Below are positions 12,381-56,680 of a stretch of DNA of 56,680 nucleotides, in pieces. The notes under the pieces are model-generated. The model made no database searches and was not told where the DNA came from. It saw only the letters and a list, made by a program, of their open reading frames with translations. The stretch comes from a virus. The first letter of the stretch is position 1; each line of letters begins with the position of its first letter. The position numbers were made by a program, and so were the translations under genes. The stretch covers positions 1 through 56,680 of IMG/VR virus record IMGVR_UViG_3300022930_000002; one strand, given 5' to 3'.

Positions 12381-12571
12381 ACTCTGATCTCGTAATAATT
12401 ATTTTTCTTGTGATACCTGGACTCCTGATCTTTGATGATCTCCTTTACTCGGTAGCTGATGCCTTCGAAACAAACGGTAGTTCCATGAACTACTACTGAT
12501 GGGGTATGGAACGCGAAGAATCTCTGATCAACGTTATACCTGTGGGTTTTTAATGGTTTTAGATTTATCAT
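12377..12571 (-). CDS. hypothetical protein
   Basis: ORF track; 4-nt overlaps on both sides. Confidence 0.6.
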   Translation of the reverse strand: MINLKPLKTHRYNVDQRFFAFHTPSVVVHGTTVCFEGISYRVKEIIKDQESRYHKKNNYYEIRV

Positions 12572-13077
12572 TTTCGTAATGCTGTATGTTTCTCCACTTC
12601 CGGAAGTTGTTTTAGTTTTTCATAATCCCACCGGAAGCCTTTAAAGGAAAAATACCTTCCTATTCTTCGACACACTTTTTGTATGTTACTGTGTTTAGGG
12701 TCGGTGCCGATAGATATCGCTGCCTCTTTTACAGAAGGGAAGGATTGAATATACCTGCCCTTCAGATCGTACTGGTGAACTTCCTTAATATTAGGCATTG
12801 CATAAACCACATCAGGCTTGTCAACCGGATTGAACTTCTGCTTATGCCTCCTTAGATAATCGTGCACCTGGCTAAGTTTGAACCGCAGCGTTTCTTCAAG
12901 CTCCGTAGCAAGCATAAGTTTACTGGTATGTAGATTATTTACCAGATATTTGGACCCTATCAGTTCCTCACCTTCCTGGTTATGTAACACAAAACCATTC
13001 TCGTGCCGGCCCCGACAGGTTAGTTCCTCAATCGTAAACTGGGGAGTGATCCGATATCTTGTCTCACCTTTATTCAT
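12568..13077 (-). CDS. hypothetical protein with C-terminal NUMOD1/IENR1-like DNA-binding module
   Basis: FPSVKEAAISIG..NIQKVCRR...FKGFRWDY resembles the HTH module of phage homing nucleases; no nuclease motif seen. Confidence 0.5.
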   Translation of the reverse strand: MNKGETRYRITPQFTIEELTCRGRHENGFVLHNQEGEELIGSKYLVNNLHTSKLMLATELEETLRFKLSQVHDYLRRHKQKFNPVDKPDVVYAMPNIKEVHQYDLKGRYIQSFPSVKEAAISIGTDPKHSNIQKVCRRIGRYFSFKGFRWDYEKLKQLPEVEKHTALRK

Positions 13078-26551: not shown

Positions 26552-27718
26552 ATGAAACAATACATAGACTTACTAAAAGCTATCGAAGCCCAGGGCACCG
26601 ATAAGCCTGCTGCCCGAGCAAATATGCCAGGCTCCCGATCACTATTCGGATACCAGTTCAGACATAATCTAGCTGATGGATTCCCATTACTTACCACTAA
26701 AAAGATGTACTGGAAAGGTATCGTAGCTGAATTGCTATGGTTCTTAAGAGGTGATACCAACATCAAATTTCTGGTGGATAATGGAGTCAACATCTGGAAT
26801 GGTGATGCTTACAATTTTTATCTTAAAAAATGTAAAGAAGTAGGAGTTACAGAACCATTGGAAATGGAGGGAGAATTTGGTTTTATAGCCCACATCAAAG
26901 CTTCCCAGTTACAACCTGGTACAAAAGTTTTAGCTCAGTCAGGATACCAATATGGTGATTGCGGATATCAATACGGTAAAGTGTGGACAAACTGGCAAGG
27001 AGAACCTTTTTTAGCAGGCAATACTTCTGGTGGAGATAACCATATTTACATTGATCAACCTTCCATCAATCAGATCACCAGAGTCATCCGGTCGTTACGC
27101 GAAACCCCAGAATCACGCAGACATATCGTTACCGCAGTTGATCCGGCTCACGACACAGACTTAGCCCTATATTGGTGCCATAGTATGTTTCAATTCAACT
27201 GTAGACCTCTTACACTTAATGAGAGGTACGAACTGTCCAACACAGGCTATATCCTGTTTGAGGATGAAAGTGATGAACTGGAATATAAGCAGATGCCGAA
27301 TATTTATGGTCCTGAAACTTTAACAGAAAGGATGGATTACTTTAATGTACCAAAATACTATTTGGATTGTCAGCTTTACCAGAGATCAGCCGATAGTATT
27401 TTAGGTGTGCCCTTTAATATTGCAAGTTATGCGCTACTTACCCATTTCATAGCTAAGATCGTTAACATGGTGCCAGGAGAGTTTATTCATAGTTTCGGAG
27501 ATGCCCACGTATATGACAACCATAAAGAAGCAATGGCAGAACAACTGAGCCGTACACCAACTGAGCTGCCAAAGTTAAATATAAATAGCCTGCCGTTCGA
27601 TTACCTGGAAGCAGGAGAAGATTGGGATAATTTCTTGTATGGTCTTAAAATAGAGGATTTTGAATTAATTGGATATAATCCTCAGCCTGCTATAAAAGCA
27701 GAACTTTCAACAGGATAA
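26552..27718 (+). CDS. thyA: thymidylate synthase (ThyA) family enzyme, divergent, with two ~50-aa insertions
   Basis: AELLWFLRGDTN, ESRRHIV, WCHSMFQF (catalytic Cys), QLYQRSAD..GVPFNIASYALL, GDAHVYDNH. The usual RTGTGT, SAWNP and PPCH motifs are altered. Confidence 0.8.
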   Translation: MKQYIDLLKAIEAQGTDKPAARANMPGSRSLFGYQFRHNLADGFPLLTTKKMYWKGIVAELLWFLRGDTNIKFLVDNGVNIWNGDAYNFYLKKCKEVGVTEPLEMEGEFGFIAHIKASQLQPGTKVLAQSGYQYGDCGYQYGKVWTNWQGEPFLAGNTSGGDNHIYIDQPSINQITRVIRSLRETPESRRHIVTAVDPAHDTDLALYWCHSMFQFNCRPLTLNERYELSNTGYILFEDESDELEYKQMPNIYGPETLTERMDYFNVPKYYLDCQLYQRSADSILGVPFNIASYALLTHFIAKIVNMVPGEFIHSFGDAHVYDNHKEAMAEQLSRTPTELPKLNINSLPFDYLEAGEDWDNFLYGLKIEDFELIGYNPQPAIKAELSTG

Positions 27719-27767
27719 AAAATATTTACAAAATATTTGCACAGGTCAGGATTTATTCTGACCTTTG
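27717..27767 (+). promoter_or_regulatory. promoter of the AAAAATATTTACAAAATATTTG class (weaker -7 box)
   Basis: AAAAATATTTACAAAATATTTG followed by a GGTCAGG..CTGACC hairpin and GACCTTTG. Confidence 0.45.
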
Positions 27768-27786
27768 TTGTATAACAAAAAAAGCT

Positions 27787-28209
27787 ATGAACGAATTACA
27801 ACAAAAACAGTTAGCCTTCTTGGAAGAAACGGTTAACCATTACAATTCTAATAACAGATGCTCTGAAGACGAATATGGTGTTAGTTGTAGATATTCCCCT
27901 ATTACCCTCGGACTTGAAGGTAAATCAGAAGGGTGTGCTATTGGTAGAAAACTTACTCCCGAACTGGCTAGAACTATTGATTTAAAATATGGAAGTGGTG
28001 GGGTAAAAACCGTAGTATCAGACTTACCACAAGAACTTATAGAATTAGAAATAGGTTTTTTACAAGACATTCAAGGATTGCACGATGCAGCTTCTAATTG
28101 GATAGAAACTGGTTTATCTCAAAGAGGACAAATTGAAGTTAATAAAATTAAAGAAAGCTATGGATTTATCGAAACTCCCACTACACATACAGAAGAAAAA
28201 AGGAAGTAA
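27787..28209 (+). CDS. hypothetical protein
   Basis: ORF track. Confidence 0.6.
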   Translation: MNELQQKQLAFLEETVNHYNSNNRCSEDEYGVSCRYSPITLGLEGKSEGCAIGRKLTPELARTIDLKYGSGGVKTVVSDLPQELIELEIGFLQDIQGLHDAASNWIETGLSQRGQIEVNKIKESYGFIETPTTHTEEKRK

Positions 28210-36751: not shown

Positions 36752-36790
36752 AAAAAATATTTTGTTTTAATAAATTATGCTTTATATTTG
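36752..36790 (+). promoter_or_regulatory. promoter (AAAAAATATTTTG-N18-TATATTTG)
   Basis: TTG at 36762-36764 and TATATTTG at 36783-36790. Confidence 0.6.
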
Positions 36791-37049: not shown

Positions 37050-38072
37050 ATGGAATTTGATTTTACCAAAAGGCTAACTAAAAAGCGAAAACAAGAGTTT
37101 GCCGATTTAATGATAGGTTTATCTAAACTTATCGGATTCAAAGTATCTTCTAGGGGATGGGCATATATTATGGAGCAGAAAGGCTACATTAATAAAGACC
37201 AGTTTGATAGAGTTGCAGATGCAATCAACGATTGTAGAAAGCAAGGTTTCTTGCCGGTAGATTTTGTTGCTGAAGAAAAAGCCCGAGAATTTTCTGGGGT
37301 AGAGACTCCCGACGATAGAACTTTAGAATCTATCCTTAGATGGATGGTATCTGATGTCTTAACTGGACATAAATATTATATGCCAGATTGGTGGAACGGT
37401 GAACAATACTACATTCAAATGGTTGTAGAGAAAGTCGATTTAGTTTCTTTGTTTGAACCTATTTGCAGAGAGTATCACATACCAGTTGCCAATTCAAAAG
37501 GTTGGTCATCTATTTCTCAAAGAGCAGAATATGCTAGGAGATTTAGAGAAGCTGAAGATTTGGGATTACAATGTGTTTTACTTTATTGCGGAGATCACGA
37601 TCCAGATGGATTAAGAATATCTGAAACACTTCGAAGTAATTTAGAAGATGTTAAAGACGTTGTATTCGAAGATGGTAAAAGAGGGTATGATCCCCAGGAC
37701 CTTATTATTGATAGATTTGGATTGAACTATAATTTTATACTTGAAAATGGTTTCACCTGGATTGATAATTTAATTACAGGCTCGGGTAAAAATCTAGCCA
37801 GTCCTTCCCATCCAAATAACGGTATGCCTTATGTACAGGAATATTTAAAAGATGTTGGAGTAAGGAAGTGCGAGGCCAATGTGGTTGTAACCTTACCTGC
37901 GGTAGCTAAAAAGCTCTGTACTGAAGCCATTGAAAAATATGTTGGTGATGGTGCTCTCGAGCGTTTCAGAATTAAAACTACTGAGATTCAGGAGCAATAC
38001 GAAGAACTACTTGAACAGTATGAAATTAAAGAACCTATCCAACGTATTCTTGATGAGATAGACGAAGAATAA
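37050..38072 (+). CDS. Toprim-domain protein resembling Topo VI-A / Spo11 / JetD C-terminal region
   Basis: IQMVVEKVDL (Toprim Glu) followed by LLYCGDHDPDGLRI (DxD); N-terminal RGWAYIME possible 5Y-CAP Tyr. Confidence 0.5.
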   Translation: MEFDFTKRLTKKRKQEFADLMIGLSKLIGFKVSSRGWAYIMEQKGYINKDQFDRVADAINDCRKQGFLPVDFVAEEKAREFSGVETPDDRTLESILRWMVSDVLTGHKYYMPDWWNGEQYYIQMVVEKVDLVSLFEPICREYHIPVANSKGWSSISQRAEYARRFREAEDLGLQCVLLYCGDHDPDGLRISETLRSNLEDVKDVVFEDGKRGYDPQDLIIDRFGLNYNFILENGFTWIDNLITGSGKNLASPSHPNNGMPYVQEYLKDVGVRKCEANVVVTLPAVAKKLCTEAIEKYVGDGALERFRIKTTEIQEQYEELLEQYEIKEPIQRILDEIDEE

Positions 38073-38259
38073 ACAAGTCCTGCGAGTGGGAATCCGCGAA
38101 GTGCAGGCAAGAAATAAAACACACATTAAAGCCTGAGAAAGTGTTAATTGTAGTATCTGAATGTGTCGTCAGCCGGAGTGTTCTGGATGAGCTACAGCCA
38201 CCTGTTTACGTAACGCGACGCGATAAGTAAACAAGCCCCTGAATGTGTGTTTTTAATAT

Positions 38260-38333
38260 TGCGAGGTACATCAGTTGGCTAGATGGTCCGGCTCATATCC
38301 GGAATGGCGAGAGTTCGAGTCTCTCCCTCGCAA
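38260..38333 (+). tRNA. tRNA with anticodon CAU (elongator Met or Ile2)
   Basis: Acceptor TGCGAGG/CCTCGCA, D stem CATC/GATG, anticodon stem TCCGG/CCGGA, loop CTCATAT, T arm GAGAG-TTCGAGT-CTCTC. Confidence 0.8.
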
Positions 38334-38401
38334 CGAACAAGTGCATTGACATTTTAGTGAAGTTAGTTCGGACGAGGGTTCGACTCCCTCCACCTCCACC
38401 A
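38334..38401 (+). ncRNA. ssrA: tmRNA-like acceptor piece (3' half of a tRNA-Ala-like domain, encoded CCA)
   Basis: GGAC-GAGGG-TTCGACT-CCCTC-CACCTCC-A-CCA; its 5' end ACAAGTGCA is complementary to the 3' end of the coding piece. Confidence 0.6.
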
Positions 38402-38468
38402 ATGTTAAGGGTAGTTACTTAACGCTAAAGAAAAGGATTGATTGATGATCGCCTTTTCTAAACCTAAT

Positions 38469-38610
38469 GGGGGTGCCTGGTTTTGACGTATTAATAAGTA
38501 GGTAAAGTAGAGTGTTTGTTTAAATTCAACTGGCAAAGTTGTAAAAATGTTCAGTCCATCGCTAAGAGCGGTAGCCTAAACAGTCCGCAGGGAACTAAAT
38601 CCCTGCACTT
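38469..38610 (+). ncRNA. ssrA: tmRNA-like coding piece (5' acceptor strand GGGGGTG, D-loop analogue CCTGGTTTTGAC, candidate tag frame ending AVA-TAA, 3' hairpin)
   Basis: GGGGGTG pairs with CACCTCC (38391-38397), giving G3:U70. An open frame at 38511-38576 stops at TAA 38577. Hairpin GCAGGGA-ACTAAA-TCCCTGC. Confidence 0.55.
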
Positions 38611-38683
38611 GTATCCTTAGCTCAGTTGGTAGAGCAGCGCACTCATACTGCGTAGGTCGTCTGTTCGAGTCAGGCAGGGTACA
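38611..38683 (+). tRNA. second tRNA with anticodon CAU (Met or Ile2)
   Basis: Acceptor GTATCCT/AGGGTAC, D arm GCTC-AGTTGGTA-GAGC, anticodon stem GCGCA/TGCGT, loop CTCATAC, T loop TTCGAGT. Confidence 0.85.
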
Positions 38684-38691
38684 CAATTAAT

Positions 38692-39334: not shown

Positions 39335-40513
39335 ATGTCAGGCCACGCAAAACTCTCGCCATCCTCCGCTAGTAGGTGGATGGCTTGCACTAAGTCTCCG
39401 GACTTAGAATCTAATTTTCCTAATACTACCAGTAGTTTTGCTGAAGAAGGCACGTTGGCTCATGCAATTTGTGAGGATATGCTACGTCTGGAACATAACC
39501 AGATAACTGAAAAACAGTATGAGAAGCAAATGAAATCTCATAGGAAAAGCCAATATTATAACGAAGAAATGTTACAGTATTGCCAGGACTATGTTGATTT
39601 TGTAAACTTGTCAGCTTGCGAACCAGGTGCTTTTATTTTCATCGAACAACGTCTTGATATGACTAATTATGTTCCTGAAGGTTTTGGTACTGGGGATGCT
39701 TTAGTGATCTGGCCATGGATGAAAAAACTTAAGTTCTTTGATTTAAAATATGGAAAAGGAGTTAAAGTCTCAGCATTAAATAACACACAACTTAAGTTGT
39801 ATGCACTTGGAGCCTTAAACGATTACGGACACATATTCGAGATTGAAGAAATTGAAGTTAATATCTTCCAACCACGTTTAGATGGATCATCTACCTGGAA
39901 CATTTCAGTAGCGGACCTGTTAGAATGGGCTGAAGCAGAACTTAAACCTAGGGCACTTTTAGCTTGGAATGGAGAAGGAGAGTATAAAGCAGGAGAGCAC
40001 TGTAGATTCTGTAAAGCAAAAGCACAGTGCCGAGCTTTAGCAGAATACAATCTAAGTCTTGCGGAGATGGCTTTTAAAGACCCCGATCTGTTAGAAATGG
40101 ATGAGATTGCTGATGTACTTTCCAAAGAAGATTTATTTAAGAATTGGATCGAAGCAGTAAAAGGTTATGCTTATGCGCAGGCTGTAGAGGGTGAGAAAAT
40201 TCCAGGATACAAGTTGGTCCACGGAAAATCTACTAGGGTCTACAGTGATCCTTTGAAAGTGGAAGAAGTGTTAAAGAAAAACGGTCATACCGATATCTAC
40301 ACCAAACCTGCTCTAGTTGGAATCACTGAGCTATCCAAACGTATTGGTAAAGTTAATTTTGCTAACGTAGTAGAACCTTTACTAATTAAGCCAGATGGCA
40401 AAGCAACACTGGTAGTAGAGTCCGATAAGAGACCGGAGATGTTAACGGCTCACGCAGCAGCTAATGCTTTTGACGATGAGTTTATTGATGACGATGCAAG
40501 CGATTTAGTATAA
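39335..40513 (+). CDS. PD-(D/E)XK exonuclease, DUF2800 / Cas4-like
   Basis: HAKLSPSSASRWMACTKSP start, GTGDALVI..DLKYGKG nuclease core, C-terminal CRFCKAKAQC. Confidence 0.75.
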   Translation: MSGHAKLSPSSASRWMACTKSPDLESNFPNTTSSFAEEGTLAHAICEDMLRLEHNQITEKQYEKQMKSHRKSQYYNEEMLQYCQDYVDFVNLSACEPGAFIFIEQRLDMTNYVPEGFGTGDALVIWPWMKKLKFFDLKYGKGVKVSALNNTQLKLYALGALNDYGHIFEIEEIEVNIFQPRLDGSSTWNISVADLLEWAEAELKPRALLAWNGEGEYKAGEHCRFCKAKAQCRALAEYNLSLAEMAFKDPDLLEMDEIADVLSKEDLFKNWIEAVKGYAYAQAVEGEKIPGYKLVHGKSTRVYSDPLKVEEVLKKNGHTDIYTKPALVGITELSKRIGKVNFANVVEPLLIKPDGKATLVVESDKRPEMLTAHAAANAFDDEFIDDDASDLV

Positions 40514-41025
40514 TGGAGATTTGGAAAGACATATCTGGTTTCGAAGGATTATATCAAATAAGTAATTTTGGTAATGTAAAATCATTTGATAGAAAGTACC
40601 CCAATAAATTAACAGGAGGTTTTTCAGTTAGAAAAGGTCAAATGTTAAAAACTTGGGTATCTAAAGGATATGTAAGAGTGGGTTTGTGTCTTAATGGAAA
40701 ACATAGATTTTATGCGGTTCATCGCTTAGTAGCTATAGCTTTCTTAGTCGCTATACCTGGTAAAAATATAGTTAATCATATTGATGCAAACCCTTTAAAT
40801 AACCACTATACTAATCTTGAATGGTGTACTCAAAAAGAAAACATCCATCACCAATTAAACATTACAAAAATAATACCTAATAGGTCAAAATTAATTTTAG
40901 ATAAAGACACAGGTTTTATTTTTGATAGTGCAAAAGAAGCCCATAACTCCAATAACATTTCAGTAAAAGAAGGTGCTTTTAGACTTAGATTATTTAATCC
41001 AAAATACAGATTTTGTTACATATGA
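40513..41025 (+). CDS. HNH homing endonuclease with NUMOD4-type N-terminus
   Basis: EIWKDISGFEGLYQISNFGNVKS, VHRLVAIAF, NHIDANPLNNHYTNLEW.TQKEN. Confidence 0.8.
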   Translation: MEIWKDISGFEGLYQISNFGNVKSFDRKYPNKLTGGFSVRKGQMLKTWVSKGYVRVGLCLNGKHRFYAVHRLVAIAFLVAIPGKNIVNHIDANPLNNHYTNLEWCTQKENIHHQLNITKIIPNRSKLILDKDTGFIFDSAKEAHNSNNISVKEGAFRLRLFNPKYRFCYI

Positions 41026-56456: not shown

Positions 56457-56680
56457 AATTATATCCTCCTTTTATTTTTTTTGTGATTAATTTTGTATCT
56501 TCTATATGTTGTAAAACCTCTAATATCGCCATTTCTTCTGTAAGTCCAACTAGTTTGATTTTAAATCCTTTCTGGGTGCCAGAATCATCCATTTTAAATA
56601 CCGCCTCACCTTCCAATCCATTCTCCAACTGCATATCTATTGCCAGATAAGAAAGTATCCTAATAGTTTCTGTATGCTTA
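56446..56680 (-). CDS. 3' part of the wrap-around ORF that starts at 237 (bases 56554-56680 duplicate 1-127)
   Basis: The frame is open to the right edge. The ORF-track entry 56446-56634 begins at an internal Met. Confidence 0.7.
   Translation of the reverse strand, partial: KHTETIRILSYLAIDMQLENGLEGEAVFKMDDSGTQKGFKIKLVGLTEEMAILEVLQHIEDTKLITKKIKGGYNYGK
56554..56680. repeat. terminal direct repeat, second copy of 1-127
   Basis: Exact 127-nt identity by eye. Confidence 0.95.

Follow-up and report, generated by a model that had tools for sequence, protein, structure and literature searches.

The window analysed here is IMG/VR virus record IMGVR_UViG_3300022930_000002, positions 1 to 56,680, and the gene of interest lies at 38334-38610 on its plus strand, where an earlier sequence-only reading had recognised a circularly permuted ssrA gene, namely one in which the acceptor half of a transfer-messenger RNA (tmRNA) precedes the 5' half, so that the product comes in two pieces. 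The locus is bracketed by two tRNA(CAU) genes, as that reading had it; both are called by ARAGORN and by Rfam, both are on the plus strand (38260-38334, elongator type, with 61.1 bits for the Rfam tRNA model; 38611-38684, with 63.8 bits), and both abut the permuted ssrA gene exactly.

As for the identity of the gene, the Rfam 15 model RF04321 (tmRNA_permuted) matches 38341-38579 (+) over its full length; its score of 57.0 bits exceeds the gathering score, which is 47 (E = 1.7e-8, calculated on the whole window), and the match falls entirely between the two tRNA genes. The standard tmRNA model, RF00023, finds the 3' tRNA-like part only (38335-38401, model positions 305-374, 43.4 bits); none of the lineage-specific permuted models RF01849, RF01850 and RF01851 (alpha, beta and cyano) reaches its gathering score in the window, and all of them score below the 43.4-bit partial RF00023 match that displaced them. 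The RF04321 score and the covariation found in relatives both favour the permuted order, and we judge, with a probability of about 0.8, that 38334-38610 is a real and probably functional circularly permuted ssrA gene yielding a minimal two-piece tmRNA.

Two predicted RNA pieces and their ends

The acceptor piece (38335-38401, about 67 nt) is delimited by the RF04321 alignment, the 3' part of RF00023 and covariation. It carries one strand each of the helices P2c (AACAAGUGC, 38336-44), P2b (38351-58) and P2a (GUUAGUUC, 38362-69), followed by GGAC (38370-73), the T-arm GAGGG/UUCGACU/CCCUC (38374-90), the acceptor 3' strand CACCUCC (38391-97), the discriminator A (A73, 38398) and an encoded CCA (38399-401); from GGAC to CCA (38370-38401) this is what the sequence-only reading had described.

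The intervening sequence (IVS; 38402-38468, 67 nt) is predicted to be removed on maturation and to fold into two hairpins, one of 6 bp (38404-38423) and one of 8 bp (38429-38459, AGAAAAGG/CCUUUUCU, with the loop AUUGAUUGAUGAUCG). The second hairpin with its loop is nearly identical in the closest relative, L014, and in L128 and L138, the rest of the IVS being highly variable, and could be a processing or regulatory element. Its loop holds UGA in all three frames.

The coding piece (38469-38610, 142 nt) opens 67 nt downstream of the CCA with GGGGGTGCCTGGTTTTGAC (38469-38487), in agreement with the 5' end assigned before; in it the acceptor 5' strand GGGGGUG (38469-75) pairs with CACCUCC over 7 bp, giving G3·U70, and is followed by the D-loop analogue CCUGGUUUUGAC (38476-87). 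Next come the partners of P2a (38488-95), P2b (38501-08) and P2c (GUGUUUGUU, 38512-20), and a single-stranded spacer of 11 nt (UAAAUUCAACU, 38521-31) that runs from P2c to the resume codon GGC (Gly) at 38532. The tag frame GKVVKMFSPSLRAVA occupies 15 codons (38532-38576) and has homologues in relatives; of the frame first drawn, the end is right (...GKVVKMFSPSLRAVA-TAA, to 38579, the stop codon UAA being at 38577-79), and the start moves from 38511 to the GGC codon. A 7-bp post-stop hairpin, GCAGGGA/UCCCUGC (38587-38606), which had also been noticed and shows compensatory changes in relatives, is the analogue of helix 5; the spacer ACUU (38607-10) then separates it from the next tRNA. By this anatomy, the mature RNA is predicted to consist of about 67 + 142 nt, i.e. 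about 209 nt in two pieces.

Regarding the ends, the upstream tRNA(CAU) has a U1-A72 pair and lacks the GGG/CCC anticodon stem of initiators; it has no encoded CCA, and its discriminator A at 38333 is followed by CGA. RNase Z cleaves after the discriminator of such CCA-less tRNAs. The proposal that the flanking tRNAs act as processing sites is supported by relatives, which keep the tRNA spacing: the upstream tRNA ends 33-38 nt before GGAC in the window, in L156, L138 and L135, in Maribacter phage Panino and in further contigs, its identity varying among members (Met, Ser, Tyr, Asp, Cys, Ala), and the start of the downstream tRNA lies 31 nt past the stop codon and 140-144 nt from G1, also in L156, Panino and three further contigs. 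Members that stand alone have TAnnTTTG, 4 nt and then AGUUC at the equivalent 5' position (L130, L149, L143/L155, L160), and a terminator-like T-run after the post-stop hairpin; comparison of the two layouts thus indicates the same ends, which stand-alone members would obtain where transcription starts and terminates, and the others through processing of the flanking tRNAs. Across the whole window, TAnnTTTG, the -7 box of Bacteroidota, occurs 86 times against 76 ± 9 expected, a count that is uninformative; its placement upstream of the stand-alone members is informative. No sigma-70-like promoter or terminator-like site adjoins the tRNA-tmRNA cluster of the window, so that co-transcription with the neighbouring genes is plausible; a TATATTTG box at 36783 (+) precedes the open reading frame (ORF) upstream of the cluster.

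In the closest relative, the stretch upstream of the tmRNA (L014 225-297) is tRNA-like, with good acceptor, D and T arms and a broken anticodon stem, and ARAGORN is silent on it; it may be a decayed tRNA kept solely as a processing signal.

One pairing proposed for the new ends of the two pieces, ACAAGTGCA (38337-45) with TGCACTTGT (38604-12), is present in the window as a 9-bp complement of -13 to -14 kcal/mol, which chance rarely produces (6 of 5000 shuffles). It is absent from all 17 other unique members, whose longest end complements are 3-7 bp (-1.3 to -6.7 kcal/mol). Its 5' strand is a strand of the conserved distal P2 helix formed with 38512-38520, so that the two pairings compete, and its 3' strand overlaps three bases of the post-stop hairpin and two of the tRNA. 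As a conserved feature this helix is rejected; it is window-specific or coincidental.

The pathway that these features suggest would run as follows. The RNA would probably be co-transcribed with the neighbouring genes; a cut by RNase Z behind the CCA-less upstream tRNA would give the acceptor piece its 5' end, two cuts by RNase P, one in front of G38469 and one in front of the downstream tRNA, would free the 142-nt coding piece, and 3' trimming would expose the encoded CCA end. The two pieces would be kept together by P1, i.e. the acceptor helix, and P2; host alanyl-tRNA synthetase would charge the RNA, and host SmpB and EF-Tu would bring it to stalled ribosomes, where translation would resume at GGC and append A-GKVVKMFSPSLRAVA. 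The likely benefit would be that ribosomes are kept free during mRNA degradation or cleavage in the infected cell, and the phage-specific tag may give rescued proteins another fate than the host tag GENNYALAA.

Covarying relatives and points against function

An acceptor-junction scan of IMG/VR gave at least 120 matches, mostly genuine permuted tmRNAs; permuted ssrA is therefore common in viral contigs. The family of the window gene was collected with a pattern made of its 5' end and tag, in which permutation was not required; the 36 loci obtained (15 viral and 21 metagenome) reduce to at least 21 unique sequences from viral and metagenome contigs, and 21 of 21 are permuted. Each acceptor strand was located without reference to the other, and the two match perfectly as complements in all eight versions present in the family (GGGGGUG, GGGGAUG, GGGGUAG, GGGGCUG, GGGGUCG, GGGGGCG, GGGCUCG and GGGGUUG). 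The alanine identity elements pointed out in the sequence-only reading, G3·U70 and A73, are present in the window and invariant in its relatives; the length of the IVS ranges from 16 to 266 nt.

In an alignment of 18 unique sequences, the T-arm, P1 and the post-stop hairpin are 95.1% paired, with compensatory changes at 13 of 18 pairs; none of 500 shuffles reaches the observed pairing and compensation, and slid registers are only 44-60% paired. Taken separately, the acceptor and T-arm cells are 100% paired, 7 of their 12 pairs being compensatory, and all six counted pairs of the post-stop hairpin show compensatory changes. As for P2, its alignment needs indels and it is missed by RNAalifold; duplexes computed for each sequence are present in all members, with a mean energy of -13.4 kcal/mol for cognate partners versus -9.0 kcal/mol for non-cognate ones (permutation p = 5e-5). 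The 15-residue tag is conserved as GK..(M/L)..P.LRAVA at the amino-acid level, with synonymous differences, its homologues including GKVVQMFSPSLRAVA, GKTFEMFHAPLRAVA and GKTINFSNAPLRAVA, and the A-rich ..AAC(N) context 5' of the resume codon, which host tmRNAs also have, persists.

Several observations weigh against a functional two-piece tmRNA. The check suggested at the outset, by covariance models and ARAGORN, came out divided: RF04321 scores above its gathering threshold, as given above, and ARAGORN with default settings calls no tmRNA in the window; at lowered thresholds it does call one, with wrong boundaries and the nonsense tag AKSKI. The pseudoknots that are typical, although not universal, in tmRNAs (PK1 and PK2-4) are missing. 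Pseudoknot 1 is absent from the window gene. Its resume codon lies 63 nt from G1, a distance that is 96-99 nt in the one-piece tmRNAs of Bacteroidota and 76-110 nt in the other viral permuted ones sampled, and the hairpin on the PK1 side of the RF04321 model is deleted in the alignment of the window; pseudoknots 2-4 have no room in the 31 nt between the stop codon and the following tRNA. Pseudoknot 1 matters in the tmRNA of Escherichia coli. The P2 helix of the window is weak, with a U·U mismatch in P2a and only -6.5 kcal/mol, with G·U pairs, in P2c; four non-cognate partners are stronger than the cognate one, and in the minimum-free-energy fold of the single sequence, P1, the T-arm and the hairpins of the IVS and after the stop codon appear, but P2 does not. 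The tag ends in AVA instead of the usual LAA and is not a proven degron. Concerning a protein partner, a small accessory protein may have escaped the Pfam scan, which covered 41 ORFs, all of at least 130 amino acids and about half of the 86 ORFs of at least 80 amino acids in the window; that neither SmpB nor an integrase was found among these 41 is a result on the favourable side.

A further point against is that the search pattern itself imposes part of the LRAVA conservation seen in the 36-locus set, an argument that is to this extent circular; therefore, viral contigs were sampled again with a pattern that describes the 5' end only. This gave 119 matches, of which 60 are permuted, 42 are standard one-piece genes and 17 are not assignable to either form. 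The 60 permuted loci correspond to at least 54 unique sequences, with the stop codon mostly about 103-111 nt from G1, and most of them lie outside tRNA arrays. The theme of the tag, GK(V/T)I.(M/L)...P.(L)R(A/M)(V/T/S/A)A, is kept in this sample, which is more variable, with endings such as ..LRMVA, ..LKAAA and VRQFA. The one-piece genes are an observation in their own right: among the 119 viral contigs of this sample (L170-L278), in which the 5' end of the tmRNA is of the Bacteroidota type, about 42 hold a gene in standard order, which may be a phage-borne copy or host ssrA at a prophage end.

An exact permuted-junction pattern found no permuted copy in bacterial genome contigs; the same scan gave two one-piece Bacteroidota tmRNAs, each after a chance TCCACCA, and one chance match in a coding region. 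BLASTN of the window locus, of another locus (L148) and of the Panino locus against 50,697 phage records returned tRNA matches only, or Panino itself only; BLAST is too insensitive for a tmRNA of this kind. The gene belongs to a large, previously uncharacterised phage family, which, as far as it was sampled, appears to be phage-restricted.

Known tmRNAs and alternative explanations

Two-piece tmRNAs are a textbook case of gene permutation, recognised in three bacterial lineages and in mitochondria. The bacterial ones occur in Alphaproteobacteria, in a betaproteobacterial lineage and in Cyanobacteria (Keiler 2000, Sharkady & Williams 2004, via PMC11915505); the window gene shares with them the order acceptor piece-IVS-coding piece, the joining of the pieces by P1 and P2, G3·U70, tRNA-type processing and a score beyond the RF04321 threshold. 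It differs from them in the D-loop analogue (UGGUUUUGAC, and UGGUUUCGAC in theirs), in the resume codon (Gly, and Ala in theirs) and in the tag (GK...LRAVA versus AND...ALAA); moreover, the window family has no pseudoknots and is phage-borne, and its host phylum uses a one-piece tmRNA.

The sequence-only reading was aware of no permuted tmRNA in a phage, a statement that the literature has overtaken: permuted phage tmRNAs have been published (PMC9004378), and a homologue of the window gene in phage Panino is annotated as ssrA (PP540027, PMC11590407). The permuted phage tmRNA as a phenomenon is thus not new. The former study lists 53 ARAGORN-called two-piece tmRNAs in phage isolates, mostly marine, and reports permuted ssrA in Methylophilales phage Melnitz, pelagimyophages and Caulobacter phages (PMC9004378). 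As in the window, these are permuted ssrA genes of lytic phages with no integrase nearby, and they are proposed to keep host translation going or to exploit it; unlike the window gene, they are of the alphaproteobacterial type, and the window has no glutamine riboswitch. The other viral permuted tmRNAs sampled here have AND..ALAA tags. The sole Bacteroidetes phage listed as 'Permuted' in Table S1 of PMC9004378 is Cellulophaga phage phi4:1; it was considered as a precedent and discarded, the call (NC_021788; L164 40920-41581) being an ARAGORN artefact that lies over tRNA-Tyr, tRNA-Ser and tRNA-Asn, without a supporting Rfam match. The work that describes RF04321 and the three bacterial permuted clades counts 79 phage tmRNAs and reports a few permuted entries in Bacteroidota genomes, namely 18 of the alpha, 23 of the beta and 7 of the cyano type (PMC11915505).

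A counterpart in a cultured phage is that of Maribacter phage Panino (PP540027), whose host is in the Flavobacteriaceae. It lies between tRNA-Asp and tRNA-Thr and has 62.2 bits with RF04321; the lineage models cover its tRNA-like domain only (alpha, 29.9 of 50 bits; cyano, 30.2 of 70). It has the permuted order, GGGGGUG/CACCUCC, the P2 pairing, the GKV... start of the tag and the succession post-stop hairpin-ACUU-tRNA of the window gene, and is likewise wedged between tRNAs; unlike the window gene, its tag is GKVMNVSFAPTVRQFA, ending in VRQFA, its IVS is about 40 nt and its CCA is not encoded. The Panino report mentions the ssrA only as a possible compensation for the attachment site, and its permuted or two-piece form goes unmentioned (PMC11590407). 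It should be noted that the GenBank tmRNA feature of Panino (27557..27889, L169) overlaps tRNA-Asp and tRNA-Thr, the real gene being at 27583-27827, and that a 'hypothetical protein' coding sequence is annotated on the opposite strand inside this feature.

A Bacteroidota-like 5' end had been proposed in the sequence-only reading, and it is borne out by the one-piece tmRNAs used for comparison (L125, Prolixibacteraceae; L127, a Bacteroidetes metagenome-assembled genome; L166 and L167, human gut). These share with the window family the 5' GGGGNUGANUGG(U/A)UUUGAC(A/G)GC, i.e. UGG(U/A)UUUGAC(A/G)GC, UGGUUUUGACAGC being common to both, as well as the resume context (U/C)UGGC(G/A)A (CUGGC) with Gly as the first codon, GUUUGGACG before the T-arm and, usually, the lack of an encoded CCA, although the window gene does encode one. 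Unlike the window gene, they have the standard order, 370-400 nt, pseudoknots, a resume codon at nt 96-99 and the tags GENNYALAA and GDNYSYRLAA.

Reduced tmRNAs, namely the permuted tmRNA of jakobid mitochondria and the tmRNA-like RNA of mycobacteriophage DS6A (PMC11915505), resemble the window gene in their extreme reduction and loss of pseudoknots. The first alternative to be weighed takes its precedent from DS6A: the RNA would be a decoy or inhibitor that, once charged or bound to SmpB, blocks host trans-translation, as reported for the DS6A RNA, which has no coding sequence; the tag frame would remain untranslated. Its very small size and lack of pseudoknots fit this idea, and phages might gain by blocking the tagging of their own proteins. 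However, both reduced RNAs lack a tag frame and that of the window family is conserved; an mRNA part is needless for a pure decoy, yet the tag frame, the Gly resume codon, the stop and the hairpin persist in divergent members with synonymous change, and the ..AAC(N) context before the resume codon is that of host tmRNAs. On this balance a decoy is unlikely.

A pseudogene in decay, or a tRNA-like arrangement that arose by chance in a tRNA array, is suggested by the false permuted calls that ARAGORN makes in tRNA clusters, phi4:1 being an example, and by the nonsense tag of its lowered-threshold call for the window; it is very improbable given an RF04321 match that exceeds the gathering score and lies entirely between the tRNAs, covariation statistics that back the structure, and at least 54 unique relatives of which most lie outside tRNA arrays. 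Least credible of all is an integration-site remnant, in which the 3' half would be an attP copy of host ssrA and the 5' half unrelated or captured, with no tmRNA function, as already envisaged in the sequence-only reading: integration into tmRNA genes is common, ssrA 3' fragments are frequent in phages (PMC9004378, PMC11590407) and RF00023 does match the 3' half alone with 43.4 bits, but no integrase is found among the 41 ORFs scanned (all those of at least 130 amino acids), both halves occur in the same order in every relative, the acceptor strands covary across the IVS, the tag frame is conserved, and none of the recovered one-piece genes of Bacteroidota has this acceptor sequence.

With a functional two-piece tmRNA as the preferred reading, what appears to be new is the variant: Bacteroidota-type, minimal, with its own conserved tag, and phage-restricted as far as sampled. 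No description of a Bacteroidota-type, pseudoknot-free permuted lineage was found in the literature, the coverage of which was incomplete and makes this weak evidence. A broader reading can be put forward tentatively, at somewhat less than even odds: ssrA would have been permuted independently, from a Bacteroidota one-piece tmRNA, in a lineage confined to Bacteroidota phages; the product would be among the shortest tag-encoding tmRNAs, about 209 nt, and work without pseudoknots; and the tag GK...P.LRAVA would redirect rescued proteins rather than copy the host degron. The family would add a phage-borne permuted lineage derived from a one-piece phylum, pseudoknot-free yet tag-bearing; if functional, it would be a natural minimal tmRNA, useful for structure-function work on what trans-translation needs, and its tag, which is not that of the host, suggests a tuning of protein quality control by phages, and not just of tRNA supply. 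A cultivable system exists in Maribacter phage Panino with M. halichondriae, and the question is therefore directly testable. As for published counts of phage tmRNAs, they are unreliable in both directions, because ARAGORN misses this gene and also makes false permuted calls in phage tRNA arrays.

Genome and host phylum

Positions 1-127 of the window are identical to 56554-56680; since the first 127 nt recur at its end, the window is an assembly closed into a circle, for a complete, siphovirus-like genome of about 56,553 bp. The same sequence is also present in Logan run SRR7968061 (56,576 bp). Its structural and lysis genes encode an HK97-type capsid protein, a portal, a large terminase, a tail tube and a GH108 lysin; those for replication, a family A DNA polymerase, a VapE primase, an SNF2 helicase and a DUF2800 nuclease. 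Thymidylate synthase, a radical SAM protein and a C5 methylase are also encoded.

Scarce Shine-Dalgarno sites and A-rich upstream regions are a known pattern of Bacteroidota. In the window, a Shine-Dalgarno-like 4-mer precedes 3 of 56 ORFs, less than the 10% background, and the upstream regions are A-rich; the best matches of the terminase are Flavobacterium psychrophilum phages (52% identity, E = 2e-123). The host phylum is assigned as Bacteroidota from four lines, i.e. the few Shine-Dalgarno sites, the terminase matches, the likeness to one-piece Bacteroidota tmRNAs and the Panino homologue. Megablast of 16 kb around the locus found no related isolate, and a search for related loci with the downstream ORF of 202 amino acids gave one weak locus, of no use.

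A second tRNA array is present at 1191-1636 of the window, with Pro(TGG), Gln(TTG), His(GTG), Arg(ACG) and Leu(TAG); its order resembles the array starts of Cellulophaga phage phi4:1 and Maribacter phage Panino (Pro, Glu, Gln, His, Leu, Leu, Arg), which suggests a tRNA cassette common to Bacteroidota phages. The thymidylate synthase ORF (26552-27718, +, 388 amino acids) matches Pfam in two separate stretches, which suggests an insertion of about 100 residues inside ThyA. Two free-standing homing-endonuclease-like genes were also noticed, one at 40513-41025 (+), with NUMOD4 and HNH_3, between the DUF2800 nuclease and an RNase T-like exonuclease, and a second at 12568-13077 (-), which encodes a NUMOD1 protein. 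Finally, the motif TAAACAAG(T/C)CC occurs at 38070-38084 and 38228-38242, at both ends of a 187-nt non-coding stretch 5' of the tRNA-tmRNA cluster; TAAACAAG is found 10 times on the plus strand and 4 times on the minus strand of the window, and the acceptor piece begins with AACAAG.

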